Position numbers and translations under genes: made by a program. From Escherichia coli (GTDB lineage Bacteria > Pseudomonadota > Gammaproteobacteria > Enterobacterales > Enterobacteriaceae), in NCBI RefSeq assembly GCF_030013595.1, contig NZ_CP122768.1: a stretch of 64,000 nt of DNA; one strand, given 5' to 3'. Numbering within the stretch: the stretch's first letter is position 1; every line of letters begins with the position of its first letter. The notes under the pieces were generated by a model. It was not told where the DNA came from, searched no databases, and saw only the letters and a list, made by a program, of their open reading frames with translations. Positions 2,889 to 45,487 of the stretch are shown one piece after another.

Positions 2889-14769
<11,881 letters not shown>

Positions 14770-17577: not shown

Positions 17578-18342
17578 ATGAATAACTCCCCCCGCTACCC
17601 GCAGCGCGTTCGCAATGATCTGCGCTTCCGTGAATTGACTGTGCTACGCGCTGAGCGTATTAGCGCCGGTTTTCAGCGCATTGTCCTTGGCGGCGAGGCG
17701 CTGGACGGTTTTACATCGCGCGGCTTTGACGATCACAGCAAACTCTTCTTTCCTCAATCTGATGCTCACTTTGTGCCGCCAACGGTAACGGAAGAGGGCA
17801 TCGTCTGGCCGGAAGGACCACGCCCACCGTCGCGTGACTATACGCCGCTGTATGACGAACTACGCCATGAACTGGCGATTGATTTCTTTATTCACGACGG
17901 TGGCGTCGCCAGCGGCTGGGCGATGCAGGCGCAACCGGGCGATAAACTCACGGTGGCAGGTCCGCGCGGTTCGCTGGTGGTGCCAGAGGATTACGCGTAT
18001 CAGCTGTATGTCTGCGATGAATCCGGAATGCCCGCACTGCGCCGCCGCCTGGAAACGTTGAGCAAACTTGCCGTTAAACCGCAAGTTAGCGCGCTGGTTA
18101 GCGTGCGGGATAACGCCTGTCAGGATTATCTCGCGCACCTTGATGGTTTTAATATCGAATGGCTGGCACATGATGAGCAGGCAGTAGATGCGCGTCTGGC
18201 GCAGATGCAAATCCCTGCCGATGATTACTTCATCTGGATAACCGGCGAAGGCAAAGTCGTTAAGAATTTAAGCCGCCGCTTTGAAGCGGAACAGTATGAT
18301 CCACAGCGGGTACGTGCAGCGGCTTACTGGCACGCAAAGTAA
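17578..18342 (+). CDS. yqjH: Siderophore-interacting ferric reductase YqjH/NfeF (254 aa)
   Basis: Full ORF MNNSPRYPQRVRNDLRFRELTVLRAERISAGF...; FAD-binding siderophore-interacting protein family. Confidence 0.85.
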   Translation: MNNSPRYPQRVRNDLRFRELTVLRAERISAGFQRIVLGGEALDGFTSRGFDDHSKLFFPQSDAHFVPPTVTEEGIVWPEGPRPPSRDYTPLYDELRHELAIDFFIHDGGVASGWAMQAQPGDKLTVAGPRGSLVVPEDYAYQLYVCDESGMPALRRRLETLSKLAVKPQVSALVSVRDNACQDYLAHLDGFNIEWLAHDEQAVDARLAQMQIPADDYFIWITGEGKVVKNLSRRFEAEQYDPQRVRAAAYWHAK

Positions 18343-18355
18343 CTGATATATAAAA

Positions 18356-18390
18356 AGAAAAAGGCTGACGATTTCTCGTCAGCCTTTGCT
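18356..18390 (+). terminator. Rho-independent terminator of yqjH
   Basis: aggctgacga-tttc-tcgtcagcct hairpin followed by T-rich tract immediately after the yqjH stop. Confidence 0.6.
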
Positions 18391-18825
18391 ATGTCTGGCC
18401 CTGCTGTCTCTTAATTGGTTGTGTAATTAATTGAAATTAAACAGGTAAATGCAATTTATTTTTTATCGATATGCCTTTTTGTATGCCTATTGGGAAAAAC
18501 ACGCTTTCTTCAACAGGGAATAAAAGCCGCTTTTATGGTGTTTTGAAACGGGTTTTAAAATGGCGCTCGTGGTGCTCTCGGGCACTCAATGGCGCTCTGT
18601 GATGTGGCTGGTGGTATGTGGCCGCCATGCATAATGGGGCTGATTTTGTTCATGGCCCGGCAGCGGGTGAGCATTTTTTACCATATTCAGGGTAAAAATG
18701 GGCGAAAAAGTTCATTTCTGGCATGGCCTGAAATGCCACGCAGCCCGCGCCGCGTGTGCTCTTGCCGGGGAAAACGGCGCGGAATAATGACCGCCACCCC
18801 ACCTTATGGCGGGCAGTCCCACGAA

Positions 18826-18905
18826 ATCCCGGTTATTTCCGTTTATTCCCGGATTAATCCCGCCTTCTCCCGCATTCTCCCGGCTGTTCCCGGAATTAAT
18901 CGCCG
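18826..18905. repeat. Iteron-like array of ~7 units (TCCCGG/TCCCGC, 10-11 bp period)
   Basis: aaatcccggttatttccgtttattcccggattaatcccgccttctcccgcattctcccggctgttcccggaattaat. Confidence 0.4.
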
Positions 18906-18916
18906 TGGGGTGGTGG

Positions 18917-19207
18917 TTATCTGGTGTGGTCGTAGTTCTGCCGTAGTCGTTCACCCTCAGCGCAATGACGCGGTTTTTTAACGCCGCTGGTAACGCAACG
19001 CGGGCAGGTCATGACGTGGCTGATATACGCATCACGGGCAGCCAGCCACGTCGCTGACGGGGCGCACATATCCGCCAGCGCCTGGCCGTTGCTGGTGGTG
19101 TTGTCTTCCGGCCATGTTTCGGGCTGGTGCGCTTCCGGTAAATCCGGTGCAGGTAATGCCCGGATAAACTCACACAATGCATCCGGCAGGCTGAATAACT
19201 TATGCAT
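18917..19207 (-). pseudogene. Probable remnant of a rep/helicase-like gene (96-aa ORF)
   Basis: Shares a ~40-nt segment (acatatccgccagcgYctggccgttgctg) and peptide motif SNGQ(A/T)LADM with the intact helicase gene at 20446-20490; no RBS. Confidence 0.3.
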
Positions 19208-19629
19208 AAATCTGATGTTCTGAATCGCTGAAAACGTGCGTTTTATGGCGTTTTTTCGTGATTTCTGCGTGTTCTGATGTGCTCATTTCGCTGTATCCCT
19301 TGTGTGGCGCGGGCTGCGCGTGTGTTTCGGTGTTCTTTTTTACCGCCAGAAAACGGTAATCAGGCATATAAACACGGCTGTAAGCCGCGCCGCGTCTGGC
19401 TTCGCGTGATTTTGTGCGTCAAAAAGTGCATTTTTGCCCTTAAAAAGCGTTATTCGTAATTCACTGGTAAATGCTCCGCAGGCCGCGCCATTGCTGGCCT
19501 TTTCGCTATTCTGTGTGGTTTTGCTGTTTAACCCGTTTTGCACACTAAAATTGCCTTGCATCCCGCGCCACGTAAGGGATTGCCGGGTTTTTATGTTGCG
19601 TTTTTTGCCGTGCGTAATATTGTGCAAGT

Positions 19630-19875
19630 TGGTGGGACTGGTGGGAACTGTGGGAACCGCCTAGAACCACGCGGCTTTCAGTGGTTCCCACCAGTTCCCA
19701 CGTTGGCTTTTTGTGGGAACCGTGGCGGTTATTTTTTGTTCTTTGCGGTTCCCACCAGTTCCCGCAGAGTTCCCACTCAAAAACGAACAATAATCATACT
19801 GATGGTTTTATTATTTACTGATTTATATATGTTTTATTTTTACGGTTCCCACAGTTCCCACCAGTCCCACCACTT
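19630..19875. repeat. Putative origin of replication: at least 11 GTTCCCAC/GTGGGAAC octamer iterons in both orientations flanking an AT-rich stretch
   Basis: Octamers at 19631, 19640, 19649, 19683, 19693, 19712, 19747, 19757, 19768, 19844, 19853; AT-rich tract 19776-19840; immediately downstream of the helicase gene. Confidence 0.6.
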
Positions 19876-19906
19876 TTTCAGTTTTTAAAAACGCAATTTT
19901 TGTGAA

Positions 19907-21745
19907 TTATTCATCAATTGCGAATAACAATGCATTCTGGCCGATGGCGTAAACGCGGTGTTTCTCCCCGTTAACGGAAACGCGTTTTGTGTATCGGCGT
20001 TTCCCGTCCGTGTCGCGGTCAACAATCGCGCCAGCATCGTCAAGACTGGCCGCTATGCGTTTCAGGTCGTAGCCGCTGGCCGCCTCACATAGTGCTTCCG
20101 GTAAAAACCAGTAAACCCGCTCGCCGTTGCTCCCCGGTCGCCACCATCCGGCGCGGGTGCTTACTGGTTCGCTGTATGTGCTGCCCCCTTCAAAGCGTGA
20201 AGCATGGCGGGCGATAAACCCCGCGACGGCCCGGAGTATTTTCACGTCCTCCGATTGCCCCCGCCCACGATAGTCCGCCCACGCATCAAACATCGCTTTC
20301 ACTGCCTCCAGTGCTTCGCCCTGTTTCCACGGCAGAATCCCGGCAGTTATCGCCATTTCCCCGGCCAGTGCGCACAGTGTGAAACGCGCGGCGGCGCGTG
20401 CCTCCTGTCCGGTGCTTACGGGGAATTGTTCGCGCAGTATGGCGTACATATCCGCCAGCGTCTGGCCGTTGCTGTCGGTGCTGGTGGTGTCACTTTCATT
20501 GCGGGAAATCAGCCAGCGCACAAACTCCGGCCCGGCGTGGCCGTAATGGGTAGCCGCATTACCGCGCAGTGTTTCGGCAAATTTCCGGCCTGCTCCCCGG
20601 CGTTCTGTGTCGTTGTCGGGGTTGTGGGGTAGTGCCATTCCGTGAAGACAGTCAAATGCCCCGTAAAGCCGCTGTGCCGGAATATCCAGTAACCGCATTT
20701 CCTGCCCGGCCTTGATGCGCTGGCCGCCGCTTTCCATGTGTTTACCCACGGTCATTTCCCCGGTGGAAATAATCATGGTGCGCCATGTGTTGACCGGGCG
20801 GGCCATGCCGGACACCTTGCCACGCTGACGGCCTGTTCCGTTGCCAAGCTGATAAATCAGCCCGCCAATATCTCTGGCCGGGGCTTCGCCAATTTCATCC
20901 AGTATCAGCGCGGTATCGTTCCGCATGGTTGCCAGCCCTTCAAGCCCGGTGCTGGTGGCGTTCCAGTTGCGTTTAAAGTTGCGGGGTTCTCCCCATACGC
21001 TACAGGCCACCAGCGCCCCCACGCTTTTCCCGCTGGAACTGTCGCCCATGAAATGAAATCCGCCGCTGTCCACATCAAGCAACCACAGCAACGGCCCGGC
21101 GAGCGATGCACACACGGCCAGCATGGTTACCGGGTTTCCCCGGCATAATGCGGCCACGTTGTCGCGCCAGCCCTCCGGCGTTCCTGCGGTGGCGTACTCC
21201 TGTGAGCCTGCTTCTGTTGACTGAAACACCACATCACCATCACCGATAACCCCGCCCGGCATGACAAACAGGGCCGGGGAGTGCCACCCGGTGGCCGTGG
21301 CCGCGAGCGCCCGGCGTTTTGGTGCTGACTCCATGATGTATTCAGTCAGTGCCTGCCGTTGTTTGTAGGGAATGGTAACGCCCATGCGTAGCAGTTCCTG
21401 CCGGAGTTCTCCGCCGTCTCCGGCGAGCATTTCCATCGGTGCGGCCCATTCCCGCCACTGGCCTGACGGCGTGAGAAAACGGAGTAATCGCCCGTAGTTT
21501 TCGTCTTTGCTGTCGCTGGTCATGGCGATGACCTCCAGCGGGGAACATATAAACGTGTCTGTGTTGGTTGAGTCGCGCACGCCGTGCCAGTAAAGGCCGG
21601 GTTTCAGTATCTGGCCGCCGTCCACCTGTACATGCTGCGAATAAGTGGCGTAGCCCGGACGCGCCGGGCTGACTTTGGGGTGTTTCTTGCGTGGTGGTTT
21701 TCTCTTCCCGGATGTGACCGGGGTTTTAGTGGTTGTCCGGGTCAT
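19907..21745 (-). CDS. Replicative helicase, P4-alpha-like/SF3-type (612 aa)
   Basis: Walker A (GDSSSGKS) and Walker B (ALILDEIGE) motifs; overlaps primase stop by 20 nt; followed by iteron origin. Confidence 0.75.
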   Translation of the reverse strand: MTRTTTKTPVTSGKRKPPRKKHPKVSPARPGYATYSQHVQVDGGQILKPGLYWHGVRDSTNTDTFICSPLEVIAMTSDSKDENYGRLLRFLTPSGQWREWAAPMEMLAGDGGELRQELLRMGVTIPYKQRQALTEYIMESAPKRRALAATATGWHSPALFVMPGGVIGDGDVVFQSTEAGSQEYATAGTPEGWRDNVAALCRGNPVTMLAVCASLAGPLLWLLDVDSGGFHFMGDSSSGKSVGALVACSVWGEPRNFKRNWNATSTGLEGLATMRNDTALILDEIGEAPARDIGGLIYQLGNGTGRQRGKVSGMARPVNTWRTMIISTGEMTVGKHMESGGQRIKAGQEMRLLDIPAQRLYGAFDCLHGMALPHNPDNDTERRGAGRKFAETLRGNAATHYGHAGPEFVRWLISRNESDTTSTDSNGQTLADMYAILREQFPVSTGQEARAAARFTLCALAGEMAITAGILPWKQGEALEAVKAMFDAWADYRGRGQSEDVKILRAVAGFIARHASRFEGGSTYSEPVSTRAGWWRPGSNGERVYWFLPEALCEAASGYDLKRIAASLDDAGAIVDRDTDGKRRYTKRVSVNGEKHRVYAIGQNALLFAIDE

Positions 21746-22769
21746 GCTCCATTTCCCATAGCATCAAATCGTTAAAGTCGGAAAGGTCTGGTGATGCACC
21801 GGGCGGCCATTCCGGGAATGTGACGTAACACCCGGCCAGCAATGCGGCTTCGTTGGCTGCTCTGGAACCGGGGTTATCTTTTGATGCCCGGTCATCATCC
21901 CCGGCGATAACGAGAGATATGCGCGAGCCGTATCGCTCACGCAGCGCCATAGCCACATGTTTAAGGTTTCCCGCATTCATGGCACACACCACGGCCATGA
22001 CGTTCCAGTACTGGAGAAGGGCGGCCCCGGTGGCCCACCCCTCACACACGTAAACGTCATGTTCCGGCGCTTCCGGGGCCATCAGGTCAAAGCTCCCCAT
22101 AACATGGAAAGCCCCCTGCACCTGACCATCACGGAGAAACATTTTTCGACCGTCCGGGCTGATAATCTGCACGTTCACCACTTCGCCGCATACGTTGTAC
22201 AGCGGGACAAGCAAATCATTACCTGACTGATACAGATTGCCGGGCTGTAGCCGTTTTTTCATGAGATAGGGATGAGAAGGGTTTGCCACCTCCGCCCGGC
22301 CAAGCAACTCAAAGGCCCGGCAGGCGGTCAGTTTCTGGCGCTGGTGGCGCTGTTGCTGTTCCCGCTGGCGGAGTCTGGCCGCCTCCTGTTCTGCGGCCTG
22401 TACCCGCACCCGTTGCGCCTCCCGTTGTTCGCGGGTCATTACATCAGGTTTGCCCAGCGCGGGCAGGCACAGCCCCAGCCTGTCCGCCACAATACGGGCG
22501 GCATCAGTCTGCCGCACATTCCATAAATAAGCCCCCAGCGCCACAAGGTCGCCGCCGCTGTCCCCGGTGGCGAAGTCGTGCCAGCATCCGTCCACCAGCG
22601 AGACGGAAAAACTGCCCGCGTGACGGTCTGCACGCGTGGGGTTACGACACACCCATTCAGTGGCCTGCCGTTTACCTTCGGGCAGCCATTCGGGAACAAG
22701 GATTTCTGCATGTTGTGCCGCCACTGCGGCAACGCTACGGATTGCGTTAATCGTGGCTATGTCACGCAT
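21726..22769 (-). CDS. DNA primase with zinc-binding and TOPRIM domains (about 347 aa from MRDIATIN start)
   Basis: Zn-binding region C..HAGSFSV..GCWHDFATGDSGGDLVALGA; TOPRIM motifs VYVCEGWATG and LVIAGDDD; start chosen at ATG 22769 overlapping upstream stop (ATGCGTGA); longest ORF extends to 22919. Confidence 0.7.
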   Translation of the reverse strand: MRDIATINAIRSVAAVAAQHAEILVPEWLPEGKRQATEWVCRNPTRADRHAGSFSVSLVDGCWHDFATGDSGGDLVALGAYLWNVRQTDAARIVADRLGLCLPALGKPDVMTREQREAQRVRVQAAEQEAARLRQREQQQRHQRQKLTACRAFELLGRAEVANPSHPYLMKKRLQPGNLYQSGNDLLVPLYNVCGEVVNVQIISPDGRKMFLRDGQVQGAFHVMGSFDLMAPEAPEHDVYVCEGWATGAALLQYWNVMAVVCAMNAGNLKHVAMALRERYGSRISLVIAGDDDRASKDNPGSRAANEAALLAGCYVTFPEWPPGASPDLSDFNDLMLWEMEHDPDNH

Positions 22770-23076
22770 GTTGCCCGTCCTCCCTGATTTCCCCGGTGCG
22801 GCAGCGCCAGTTATACGCCTCCACAACCTCACTGAATCCGGCCACAAGTTCAGCCGTAACAGCGATGGAATCGCCCAGGCTGCGTAGTTCATTTGGACCA
22901 AGAGCATTATTGTCGCCAATTACCGAAAGTAGCCGCCCTGTGCCAGCCAGCGCATCAAGCAGTTTGCGGGCGCAGTAATCCGCATCATCAAACATTGCGC
23001 GGGCTTCCTGTGCGTCTGCGTTTTTGATGGCCGCAACCAGTAGTTCAGGTATCCGGGTGTTATACATATCACGCAT
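22762..23076 (-). CDS. Hypothetical small protein (104 aa)
   Basis: ORF MRDMYNTRIPELLVAAIKNADAQEARAMFDD...; start overlaps upstream stop and stop overlaps primase start via identical CATGCGTGA junctions. Confidence 0.5.
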   Translation of the reverse strand: MRDMYNTRIPELLVAAIKNADAQEARAMFDDADYCARKLLDALAGTGRLLSVIGDNNALGPNELRSLGDSIAVTAELVAGFSEVVEAYNWRCRTGEIREDGQHA

Positions 23077-23365
23077 GGCTTACCTCCCCGGCCTGCTGGT
23101 CGTAACACTCCATCAGTTCGGCCATACAGCCAATGAGGGCAGGGGCTGTCTGTAGAAATCCGGCTAACTGGCAGATCTCGTCTCTGGAATAGGTGATGGG
23201 GTTTTCGCGTAACTGGCTTTCCTCCAGTGCCTTACCAACAAAGGCAATCCCCGCAAGTAAATTCACTCTGTGCCAGTCTGCATCAACGCGCAGACTCCAG
23301 CGGCTTTCTTCGTCCGGCATACTGCTCATGGCGGCTTTCATTGACTCACGCAGACAATCACGCAT
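23069..23365 (-). CDS. Hypothetical small protein (98 aa, start at internal Met MRDCLRES)
   Basis: ORF linked to neighbours by the same CATGCGTGA stop/start overlap; longest ORF extends to 23446. Confidence 0.45.
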   Translation of the reverse strand: MRDCLRESMKAAMSSMPDEESRWSLRVDADWHRVNLLAGIAFVGKALEESQLRENPITYSRDEICQLAGFLQTAPALIGCMAELMECYDQQAGEVSHA

Positions 23366-23555
23366 GACGCACCCCCTGAGCCGGAACGCGGCCAGCAAAC
23401 AGCAACACAAAATCACGCGCCAGCATACGGCGGGCGGTTGTTTCATCGGGTGCGTTGACGGATTCGCGGTGTGGGCGGTCGTTCAGGTCGGAACGGCGAA
23501 CAGCCAGAAAGTGAAAGGTAAATTCAGGGTGTAACGGGGTTGGGGTCGTAGCCAT
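23358..23555 (-). CDS. Hypothetical small protein (65 aa)
   Basis: Strong Shine-Dalgarno AAGGAGG 8 nt upstream of ATG at 23555; the longer 201-aa ORF has junk-like composition upstream of this Met. Confidence 0.5.
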   Translation of the reverse strand: MATTPTPLHPEFTFHFLAVRRSDLNDRPHRESVNAPDETTARRMLARDFVLLFAGRVPAQGVRHA

Positions 23556-23582
23556 TCTGGCAGCCTCCTTTTGCAAATTTAA

Positions 23583-23621
23583 GGAGTCACCGCCTGAGTT
23601 CCTACACTCATAAGGGGCGGT
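23583..23621. promoter_or_regulatory. Inverted repeat GTCACCGCC-N21-GGCGGTGAC upstream of the small-gene operon (candidate operator or 5' hairpin)
   Basis: Perfect 9-bp inverted repeat 26-70 nt upstream of the 23555 start codon. Confidence 0.3.
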
Positions 23622-23744
23622 GACGCTGGCAGGGGTAGGAATACCGGCGCAAAAGGAAACCGGCCAGCCTTTCGGCTGCCCCACCAGCGCCACCATAGAT
23701 ACAGTGCGGGTCTTGCCGCTGTGCATGGGTGCGCGATGGCACGA

Positions 23745-23775
23745 CACAAAAAAAGACGCTGGGCGCGTCTGTGTC
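23745..23775 (-). terminator. Rho-independent terminator downstream of alpA
   Basis: Minus-strand agacgcgcccagcgtct hairpin followed by TTTTTTT. Confidence 0.45.
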
Positions 23776-23981
23776 GCCTTTTGCTCATTAAACGGGTTCC
23801 TACGCCCGGCTGGTGGATTTACACCAGCGGGGGAAATATAACGCCCACCAGCGATGGCAGGCAAGCAATATTTGCGGTTGCCGCCCATCCCGTGGGGCGT
23901 GTGGTGGTTGTTTTGGGCGTGAGAACGCCCCGGCCCTGTTACGGGCCTTTCTGGCATTTTCATAATGATTATCGCGGTTGG

Positions 23982-42646: not shown

Positions 42647-45487
42647 ATGAAGCCGCTCTCTTCACCGTTACAGCAGTACTGGCAGACCGTTGTTGAGCGG
42701 CTGCCAGAGCCTTTAGCCGAGGAATCACTTAGCGCACAGGCGAAGTCAGTACTTACTTTTAGTGATTTTGTGCAGGACAGCATAATTGCGCATCCAGAGT
42801 GGCTGACGGAACTGGAAAGCCAACCGCCGCAGGCCGACGAATGGCAGCATTACGCTGCCTGGTTGCAGGAGGCGCTCAGTAATGTGAGTGACGAAGCCGG
42901 GTTAATGCGTGAACTGCGGCTATTCCGGCGGCGCATTATGGTGCGCATTGCCTGGGCGCAAACGCTGGCACTGGTTACTGAAGAGAGCATATTGCAGCAG
43001 CTCAGCCATCTGGCGGAGACGCTGATTGTTGCGGCGCGTGACTGGCTGTATGACGCCTGCTGCCGCGAATGGGGAACGCCGTGCAATGCGCAGGGCGAAG
43101 CGCAACCGCTGCTGATTTTAGGCATGGGTAAGCTGGGCGGCGGGGAACTGAATTTCTCCTCTGATATCGATCTGATTTTTGCCTGGCCGGAACATGGTTG
43201 TACGCAGGGTGGACGCCGGGAACTGGATAACGCCCAGTTTTTTACCCGCATGGGGCAGCGGCTGATTAAAGTGCTGGATCAACCAACGCAGGATGGCTTC
43301 GTCTATCGCGTGGATATGCGGCTGCGTCCGTTTGGCGAAAGTGGCCCGCTGGTGCTGAGCTTTGCGGCGCTGGAAGATTATTACCAGGAGCAAGGGCGCG
43401 ACTGGGAGCGTTACGCGATGGTTAAGGCGCGGATTATGGGCGATAGCGAAGGCGTCTATGCTAACGAGTTGCGTGCGATGCTGCGCCCGTTTGTTTTCCG
43501 TCGTTACATCGATTTCAGCGTGATTCAGTCGCTGCGCAACATGAAAGGGATGATTGCCCGTGAAGTGCGTCGGCGCGGTTTGACCGACAACATCAAACTT
43601 GGCGCGGGTGGCATTCGTGAAATTGAATTTATCGTCCAGGTATTCCAGCTTATTCGCGGCGGGCGCGAGCCGTCGCTGCAATCGCGCTCTTTACTACCAA
43701 CGCTCAGCGCTATTGCCGAGCTGCATCTGCTTTCTGAAAACGATGCTGAACAATTGCGAGTGGCGTATCTGTTCCTGCGGCGTCTGGAAAACCTGCTGCA
43801 AAGCATTAACGACGAACAAACCCAGACGCTTCCTTCTGATGAGCTTAACCGTGCGCGGCTGGCGTGGGCGATGGACTTTGCTGACTGGCAGCAACTGACT
43901 GGGGCGCTGACCGCACATATGACCAATGTGCGCCGGGTGTTTAATGAATTGATTGGCGACGACGAAAGCGAAACTCAGGAAGAGTCGCTGTCGGAACAGT
44001 GGCGTGAGCTGTGGCAGGATGCGTTGCAGGAAGATGACACTACGCCAGTGCTGGCGCATCTTAGCGAAGATGATTGCAAACAGGTGCTGACGCTGATTGC
44101 CGATTTTCGCAAAGAGCTGGATAAGCGTACCATCGGGCCGCGCGGGCGTCAGGTGCTCGACCATCTGATGCCGCATCTGCTAAGTGATGTCTGTGCGCGT
44201 GAAGACGCTGCTGTCACGCTGTCGCGCATTACCGCCTTGCTGGTGGGAATTGTTACCCGCACTACCTATTTAGAATTGCTCAGTGAATTCCCCGTGGCGC
44301 TTAAACATTTGATTTCTCTGTGTGCCGCATCGCCGATGATTGCCAGCCAGCTAGCGCGTTATCCATTATTGCTGGACGAACTGCTCGATCCAAACACTCT
44401 CTACCAGCCGACGGCGATGGATGCCTACCGTGATGAACTGCGCCAGTATTTGCTGCGCGTGCCGGAAGATGACGAAGAACAACAGCTTGAGGCGCTGCGT
44501 CAGTTCAAACAGGCGCAACTGTTACGTATTGCGGCAGCGGATATCGCCGGTACGCTACCGGTAATGAAAGTGAGCGATCACTTAACCTGGCTGGCGGAGG
44601 CTATGATAGATGCCGTCGTTCAGCAGGCGTGGGTTCAAATGGTTGTCCGCTACGGTAAGCCAAATCACCTGAACGAACGCGAAGGGCGTGGTTTTGCGGT
44701 GGTCGGCTACGGCAAGCTGGGCGGCTGGGAGTTAGGCTACAGTTCCGATCTTGACCTGATCTTCCTCCATGATTGCCCAATGGATGCGATGACTGACGGC
44801 GAGCGGGAAATCGACGGGCGACAGTTTTATCTGCGTCTGGCGCAACGCATTATGCATCTGTTCAGTACGCGAACCTCTTCCGGCATTTTGTATGAAGTGG
44901 ATGCACGGTTGCGTCCGTCCGGGGCGGCGGGAATGCTGGTGACATCCGCAGAAGCGTTTGCCGATTATCAGAAAAACGAGGCCTGGACGTGGGAACATCA
45001 GGCGCTGGTGCGTGCGCGTGTAGTGTACGGCGATCCGCAGCTCACCGCGCACTTTGACGCAGTACGCCGGGAGATTATGACGCTGCCGCGCGAAGGCAAA
45101 ACCCTGCAAACAGAAGTGCGGGAAATGCGCGAGAAAATGTGTGCCCATCTCGGCAATAAACATCGCGATCGCTTTGATATCAAAGCCGATGAAGGCGGAA
45201 TTACCGATATCGAATTTATTACTCAATATCTGGTGTTGCGCTACGCTCATGAAAAACCGAAGTTAACGCGCTGGTCAGACAACGTGCGCATTCTGGAACT
45301 ACTGGCGCAAAACGACATTATGGAAGAGCAGGAAGCGATGGCGCTGACCCGTGCTTACACGACGCTGCGCGATGAACTTCATCATCTGGCATTACAGGAA
45401 TTGCCGGGCCATGTGTCGGAGGATTGCTTCACCGCAGAGCGTGAACTGGTGCGGGCAAGCTGGCAGAAGTGGCTGGTGGAAGAATGA
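42647..45487 (+). CDS. glnE: Glutamine synthetase adenylyltransferase/adenylyl-removing enzyme GlnE (946 aa)
   Basis: Start at [21 protein letters not shown] (internal to the longer ORF); duplicated nucleotidyltransferase domains. Confidence 0.9.

Follow-up and report, generated by a model that had tools for sequence, protein, structure and literature searches.

An octamer iteron array beside a DUF927 helicase gene is very probably the replication origin of a small phage satellite integrated in Escherichia coli

We analyzed a stretch of 64,000 nucleotides of Escherichia coli contig NZ_CP122768.1 (assembly GCF_030013595.1; hereafter the window), in which an 8.3-kb island inserted at the tRNA gene ileX carries a 243-bp array of octamer repeats (positions 19630–19872) next to the gene for a DUF927-type helicase. 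From comparison of sequences we conclude that this array very probably serves a small integrated phage satellite as its replication origin; the satellite is an island of the Gram-negative phage-inducible chromosomal island (GN-PICI) type with a P4-like immunity region. Origins of this type are already known from phage-inducible chromosomal islands (PICIs), and the array is no new kind of system. The original prediction, an iteron-type origin downstream of the helicase gene with an AT-rich unwinding element, is supported in silico by homology of the helicase, a layout conserved among related loci, a repeat word that varies together with the C-terminus of the helicase, and agreement with the origin architecture published for PICIs.

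The array starts 35 nt past the stop codon of the helicase gene, a minus-strand open reading frame (ORF) at 19907–21745, and holds 12 copies of the octamer GTTCCCAC/GTGGGAAC, nine exact and three variant, where at least 11 copies in direct and inverted orientation had been claimed within about 250 bp. Read outward from the helicase gene, it comprises a helicase-proximal triplet at 19843–19872 (GTTCCCAC at 19845 and 19854, the variant AGTCCCAC at 19863; 9-bp spacing); an inner triplet at 19748–19776, co-oriented with the proximal one (GTTCCCAC at 19748 and 19769, the variant GTTCCCGC between them at 19758; 10–11 bp spacing); a single inverted iteron, GTGGGAAC, at 19713–19720; a pair of GTTCCCAC copies at 19684–19701 (starts 19684 and 19694; 10-bp spacing); and a distal triplet at 19630–19659 (the variant GTGGGACT at 19632, GTGGGAAC at 19641 and 19650). 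Octamers of one group are spaced 9–11 bp. The proximal and distal triplets are inverted copies of one another at 30/30 nt, a perfect inverted repeat with 30-nt arms (19630–19659 and 19843–19872) and 183 nt between them, whereas the triplets on either side of the AT-rich stretch point the same way. This bounding inverted repeat, and the asymmetric split of the copies into three and nine, go beyond what had been predicted.

The octamer signal is strictly local. Exact octamers occur 10 times in the whole 64 kb against 1.44 expected, with nine of the 10 inside the array and the remaining copy at position 44989, outside the island; a count of at least 10 was reached in 0/100 shuffles of the window. 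When one mismatch is allowed, enrichment across the window disappears (49 octamers against 46.6 expected over 64 kb), so that the signal belongs to the array and not to the window as a whole.

Between the proximal and inner triplets lies the proposed DNA-unwinding element, an AT-rich stretch at 19777–19843 that measures 67 bp at 19% GC, close to the 65 bp first claimed for the stretch splitting the repeats, and has three iterons on its helicase side and nine on its far side. Of all 60-bp duplexes in the surrounding 12 kb it has the lowest stability (-63 kcal/mol, where the mean is -86.5 and the sd 6.4), and over the 64 kb it is 15th among 12,788 windows. Inside the array we found no DnaA box, no good integration host factor (IHF) site and no GATC; the lack of DnaA boxes fits a self-loading initiator helicase.

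The proposed iteron-binding protein is a 612-aa helicase of Rep initiator type (19907–21745, minus strand), with a DUF927 ATPase and a C-terminal winged-helix-like domain at about residues 500–612. Against Pfam it matches DUF927 at 1e-82 and, weakly (0.003, residues 503–601), HTH_56, the Cch helix-turn-helix (HTH) domain, which is found at 1e-3 or better in 5 of 76 homologues of the helicase; its NCBIfam match to Cch1 (3e-21) falls under the curated cut-off. Sequence matches in the PDB are SCCmec Cch (5DGK, 1e-17) and a protein of a Staphylococcus aureus pathogenicity island (SaPI; 8TCH, 1e-12), the latter being the “initiation of replication protein with helicase activity” of the pathogenicity island SaPIbov1, 16% identical to the window helicase. 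An AlphaFold model built with 76 homologues reached a predicted local distance difference test score (pLDDT) of 87.5 (13 sequences gave only 54.5), and a Foldseek search with this model returned full-length matches to 5DGK (E 2.7e-22) and, next, 8TCH (E 1.3e-21); eukaryotic and archaeal minichromosome maintenance (MCM) helicases came after them. In the model the C-terminus runs helix-helix and then a beta hairpin (587–591, 594–602), a topology predicted to be winged-helix-like. Sequence and model together make the helicase a homologue, in both sequence and fold, of SCCmec Cch and the SaPIbov1 Rep initiator-helicase, and the initiator of the array would be a DUF927/MCM-like AAA+ helicase with a C-terminal winged helix. 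The gene that overlaps its start encodes a 347-aa Toprim primase of DnaG/P4-alpha-like type (21726–22769, minus strand; PHROG DNA primase, 2.6e-50; toprim domain protein in RefSeq), whose match to the P4 alpha primase domain covers 117 aa at 34% identity (E 1e-14). Both ORFs are intact.

We compared the sequences that follow 14 homologous helicase genes, whose products range from 86% down to 35–44% identity, from Salmonella, Klebsiella, Brenneria, Providencia, Azotobacter and Pseudomonas; the set also includes virome contigs (a scan of viral contigs gave four loci), a 7-kb Salmonella plasmid record and the satellite phage phiAH14b. A repeat cluster lies right past the helicase stop codon in 14/14 loci, its first element a triplet equivalent to 19843–19872. 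The usual layout is two to four iterons, a spacer of 50–70 bp, three co-oriented iterons, one or two inverted, one or two direct, and an inverted triplet mirroring the first; it is looser in L017 and L018, the two most distant loci. The 50–70 bp spacer is at the same place in most related loci, with 12–20% GC in the enterobacterial ones and less extreme values in high-GC hosts.

Within this layout the repeat word changes, with about 10 words in the 14 loci: GTGGGAAC, (G)TGGGGACA, CCGGGAAC(A), GTGGGAACA, GGGGAACA, CGGTGACA, GGGTGACA, TGGTTAC, GTGGCAAC and TGGTAACA; GTGGGGACA, the Salmonella origin word, is also among the repeat words of the family. The core hexamer is typically present in 10–13 copies in 330 bp against two to eight in the other 7–16 kb of each locus (in L005, from Salmonella, 11 against three in the remaining 9.5 kb; in phiAH14b, 11 against two in the remaining 16.5 kb). 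A fixed arrangement with a changing word is as expected of a binding-site array for a co-evolving protein. The relatives are mobile replicons, among them a satellite for which packaging has been shown by experiment (phiAH14b), a 10-kb “phage” record and small plasmid records. In L018, a 6989-bp Salmonella “plasmid” record (OX345456.1), a fused protein of about 895 aa matches the DUF927 helicase and is followed by about 10 TGGTAACA iterons; this record could represent either a satellite after excision or a small plasmid with the same type of replicon.

The protein that the word follows is the helicase, and within it the C-terminus. Between the window and L005 the ATPase core is 93% identical and residues 545–612 are 54% identical, and the word differs; between the window and L009 the figures are 94% and 85%, and the word is identical. 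L010 and L015, and likewise L008 and L014, share 92% of the ATPase core and 77% of residues 545–612, and in both pairs the word differs. At the start of the predicted wing, TKRV is common to 6/6 loci with a GGGAAC core and a helicase closest to the window's, and TKRIRAG to 3/3 GGGGACA loci. The primase does not follow the word, the L005 primase being nearer to the window's than is that of L009. The integrase and AlpA are set apart from the word by E. coli islands at a second site, yicC-dinD, where the helicase and primase are 98% identical to the window's and all 12 octamers are unchanged, but where the integrase is just 29% identical and the window's alpA and the neighboring gene for a 292-aa protein have no detectable homologue. 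Taken together, the pairwise comparisons and the yicC-dinD islands place the array in the replication module, and within that module with the helicase C-terminus: as read from these alignments, the repeat word tracks the last ~70 helicase residues, the predicted winged helix, and not the primase, integrase or AlpA.

This combination of helicase and array is closest to that of the SaPIs. The C-terminal winged helix of SaPI Reps recognizes short iterons immediately downstream of rep, with an AT-rich region among them, and these Reps bind and melt without ATP and self-load (PMC9371898). SaPI origins contain 6–12 penta- or hexanucleotide iterons, in both orientations and on both sides of an AT-rich center, with a roughly even split (PMC9371898). 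The window shares with SaPIs and Gram-positive PICIs (SaPIbov1, SaPI1, SaPI5) the homologous DUF927/MCM-like hexameric helicase; the position of the origin immediately 3' of rep, found here and in the 14 loci; two sets of short iterons in both orientations flanking an AT-rich region; and a separate primase gene just upstream. In contrast to SaPIs, the iterons of the window are 8 bp long and the primase is of Toprim type, and host, regulation (AlpA, C4 RNA) and sequence are unrelated.

The island itself is built like a GN-PICI. It occupies 18396–26712 at the 3' end of ileX (26713–26788), between nfeF and mug, a site that is empty in K-12, and a degenerate attachment (att) repeat, TGGCCCTGCTG, lies at 18396–18406. 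Among the closest matches, the region is 100% identical in several pig isolates, mostly enterotoxigenic. Every gene is on the minus strand, in the order int (25250–26524), a hypothetical gene of 292 aa (24370–25248), an alpA-like HTH gene (23982–24236), C4/isrK immunity RNAs (23613–23841, within the region of an ash pseudogene), an icd-like gene (23358–23555), two small ORFs, primase, helicase, the array and, as the last ORF past the array, a 96-aa ORF (ORF96, 18917–19207). Rfam places a C4 antisense RNA at 23613–23700 (79.6 bits) and isrK at 23749–23828 (60.7 bits); a c4-a1b1 target of the P4-type immunity module scores 38.6 bits, under the gathering score. GN-PICIs have a unidirectional int-alpA-replication-origin layout (PMC6092414; Fillol-Salom et al., 2018), and the pri-rep-ori of one of them, EcCICFT073, drives plasmid replication (PMC6092414). 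DUF927 is already among the GN-PICI “primase” families, and C4/isrK matches have been reported in GN-PICIs (PMC10111431). The window island has the order of EcCICFT073, EcCIRM13514 and EcCI042 (int, alpA, icd, small ORFs, replication gene or genes, origin, all in one direction), a specific att site, and a length of 8.3 kb in the 8–15 kb range, without phage structural or lysis modules; we recognized no packaging or interference genes in it.

The replication genes of those islands differ from that of the window: the CFT073, RM13514 and IHE3034 islands have a fused “DNA primase family” Pri-Rep and that of 042 a RepA-family helicase, none with significant similarity to the window helicase. The iterons differ as well. 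EcCICFT073 has GGTAGACA around an AT-rich stretch past its unrelated Pri-Rep, and shares with the window a AAGCCGCGCC motif described below; EcCI042 has AAGTGAG past its RepA-family helicase. The EcCIRM13514 origin (L027, 8555–9045, NZ_CP006027.1) carries GGTGAACA/TGTTCACC, which is the P4 type-1 iteron octamer, past Pri-Rep. We rejected the idea that the window island and EcCIRM13514 are the same island: close relatives share its att site, but there is no DNA similarity and the Pri-Rep is unrelated. Of the eight att sites so far published for PICIs of E. coli, none is ileX, and we found no description of the window iteron in the literature.

The original prediction had likened the array to P4 ori/crr with a different repeat sequence. 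As a functional analogy this likeness stands: in both elements octamer iterons in direct and inverted orientation lie 3' of a replication gene (crr directly 3' of the alpha gene), in P4 they are bound by the element's own primase-helicase, and both elements have a C4-type immunity RNA. As a statement of family it does not. The window helicase has no significant similarity to P4 alpha (E 0.5), and it is only the Toprim domain of the window primase that matches alpha. In alpha, primase and helicase are fused in one protein, whose helicase part has no relation to DUF927. The P4 record has ori at 9086–9809 and crr at 4291–4590, ~4.5 kb apart and both needed, whereas the window has one cluster, with no second cluster in the window or in 10 related loci. 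The island has no psu, sid or delta gene. The P4 iteron TGTTCACC/GGTGAACA has 0 copies in the whole 64-kb window, in keeping with the claim that the repeat differs from that of P4. Because the P4 word is absent, the helicase is unrelated to alpha and there is one cluster, the closest family is PICI/SaPI Rep-ori and not P4.

Classical iteron plasmids (pSC101, R6K, RK2, P1) have direct repeats of 17–22 bp, a non-helicase WH1-WH2 Rep, DnaA boxes and DnaB/DnaC loading. The window resembles them in its repeated initiator sites beside an AT-rich unwinding element, both predicted here, and departs from them in its 8-bp words in both orientations, an array with no DnaA box, and an initiator that is a helicase. 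A further counterpart is the Pseudomonas satellite phiAH14b (L020, KU708005.1), which has the same order of int, alpA, Toprim and DUF927 helicase genes and a helicase 37% identical to the window's, but is larger (16.8 kb) with tail-assembly and other cargo genes. It is packaged in helper capsids, and its paper mentions no origin (PMC4936722). At 9248–9550 of its record, past the helicase gene, we found about 11 GGGGAACA iterons in the family layout.

By homology with SaPI Reps, after induction and excision the Rep helicase would bind the 8-bp iterons through its C-terminal winged helix, melt the adjacent 67-bp AT-rich stretch and load itself there. The co-transcribed Toprim primase would then prime, and host polymerase would elongate. 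Since the iterons of a triplet lie one helical turn apart, several C-terminal domains of one hexamer could occupy one face of the DNA.

Several points weigh against the array being a working origin of this type. The AT-rich stretch is off-center, with three iterons against nine, and the triplets flanking it are co-oriented, neither of which is like the SaPI description. Without a DnaA box or a good IHF site, one independent hallmark of an origin is removed. The co-variation of word and C-terminus draws on about 15 loci, with about six to eight independent word switches among their sequences. Finally, the island appears partly decayed, with ash a pseudogene and ssb, perC and mor gone, so that the origin may be used rarely or no longer.

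Taken to its end, the last point becomes an alternative that we consider improbable, although it is the strongest of those weighed: that the array descends from an origin but is now a fossil, in a satellite too decayed to excise or replicate, and persists only because it is young. The island is short, at 8.3 kb, and ash is a pseudogene. The near-identical replicons at yicC-dinD continue past the 96-aa ORF with an ssb fragment, perC, mor and tRNA genes (L002/L003 7000–9150, compared with window 18396–19630), whereas the window island ends about 500 bp past this ORF. Packaging genes were not seen in the island. The replicon is also rare, in 31 of 5426 complete E. coli genomes. Against a fossil, the primase, helicase, int and alpA are all intact. 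The helicase is 98–99% and the origin 97–100% identical across strains from pig, human, cattle, goat and dog and across two integration sites, a near-identity that implies recent mobility. Moreover, in the 699-bp intergenic region, of which 10 distinct alleles were compared, variation is scarcer at iteron positions than around them (2/96 variable against 58/603 other intergenic positions; Fisher p = 0.010), and one of the two variable iteron positions sits in a degenerate outer copy. The iterons are under purifying selection within E. coli.

We think it very unlikely that the repeats are no origin but serve AlpA, a Mor/PerC-type activator or some protein of a helper phage as operator or activator sites, controlling a promoter in the AT-rich stretch for the genes past the helicase. 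A regulated promoter can be AT-rich DNA between phased repeats, and a conserved non-coding stretch of ~430 bp and a small ORF do lie past the array. However, we found no sigma-70-like promoter in 18300–20100, and so rejected a promoter in the AT-rich stretch. The word follows the helicase C-terminus and not alpA, the yicC-dinD islands having identical repeats with no detectable alpA homologue; the array is intact in the window island, from which mor and perC are absent; and relatives with quite different downstream genes retain it.

Least credible is that the 30-nt inverted repeats, which at 183 nt apart superficially resemble the ends of a miniature inverted-repeat transposable element (MITE), mark a site of packaging (pac/cos) or recombination (integrase arm) or the ends of a transposon: a search with the array alone matched exactly the 31 helicase-bearing genomes, once each and solely beside the helicase gene, a distribution that largely refutes this and by which we rejected a MITE or other dispersed repeat; the array is unchanged where the integrase is replaced by one 29% identical at another att site; it lies 1.2 kb from one end of the island and 6.8 kb from the other; and a cos or pac site would be expected to follow the helper phage, not the helicase C-terminus.

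Other features of the island touch the array less directly. A known RNA in the array was rejected, Rfam giving only a chance-level match there (RF04346, E 0.1) and true matches (C4, isrK, tRNA) elsewhere in the island. The ~430 bp between the origin and the 96-aa ORF (19208–19630) are non-coding and have counterparts of similar length in related loci, with shared blocks such as ATTTTAGTGTGCAAAAC and AAAAACGCCATAAA; we found no promoter-like site and no Rfam match in this stretch. Just 3' of the 96-aa ORF, at 18827–18893, six or seven copies of TCCCG(G/C) are phased at 10–11 bp and are kept in close E. coli relatives at 91–97%. This array looks like a set of degenerate iterons and was considered as a crr-like second site, but in 10 related loci with other words there is no second cluster of the iteron core; from this comparison it is probably not one, and we leave it out of the origin. 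A 43-nt direct repeat with 88% identity joins the 96-aa ORF (19061–19103) to helicase codons 421–435 (20441–20483); the ORF as a truncated paralogue of the helicase was rejected, the protein match covering just 14 residues (E 0.003).

One further element of the array is not an iteron. The spacer at 19665–19683 (minus strand) reads CTGAAAGCCGCGTGGTT, and related origins have AAGCCGCGCC-N4-6-CTGG at the same relative place. In most members of the family, whatever the iteron word, this motif stands just before the last iteron triplet, and it can often fold into a small hairpin. It recurs at the corresponding position in the EcCICFT073/IHE3034 origin, which has an unrelated initiator, but is missing from the origins of EcCIRM13514 and EcCI042. 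Further copies lie near 19480 (+), 19382 (+), 19315 (-), 18742 (+) and 26667 (-), in non-coding DNA past the origin and by the tRNA.

We tentatively suggest, as a doubtful possibility, that these origins share a fixed grammar (triplet, unwinding element, triplet, mixed iterons, inverted triplet; about 12 sites) together with a second element, AAGCCGCGCC-N4-6-CTGG, that is independent of the word. Two Rep hexamers have 12 C-terminal domains, a number that about 12 iterons may match. If the AAGCCGCGCC element were a shared priming site, or a site for a host or helper factor, it would be an undescribed common component of GN-PICI origins beyond iterons and AT-rich DNA. For annotation, 243 previously unannotated base pairs would become the origin of a Toprim + DUF927 replicon, and the 8.3 kb at ileX a PICI-type satellite. 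How self-loading Rep helicases recognize and melt their origins is still an open question (PMC9371898). The family offers a natural series of closely related helicases whose ATPase cores are ~90% identical but whose C-terminal domains and iteron words diverge; they occur in E. coli and Salmonella, two hosts in which domains are easily swapped. If the proposed grammar is true, these natural pairs of C-terminal domain and iteron would provide, in a tractable E. coli system, a code for iteron recognition by self-loading helicases.

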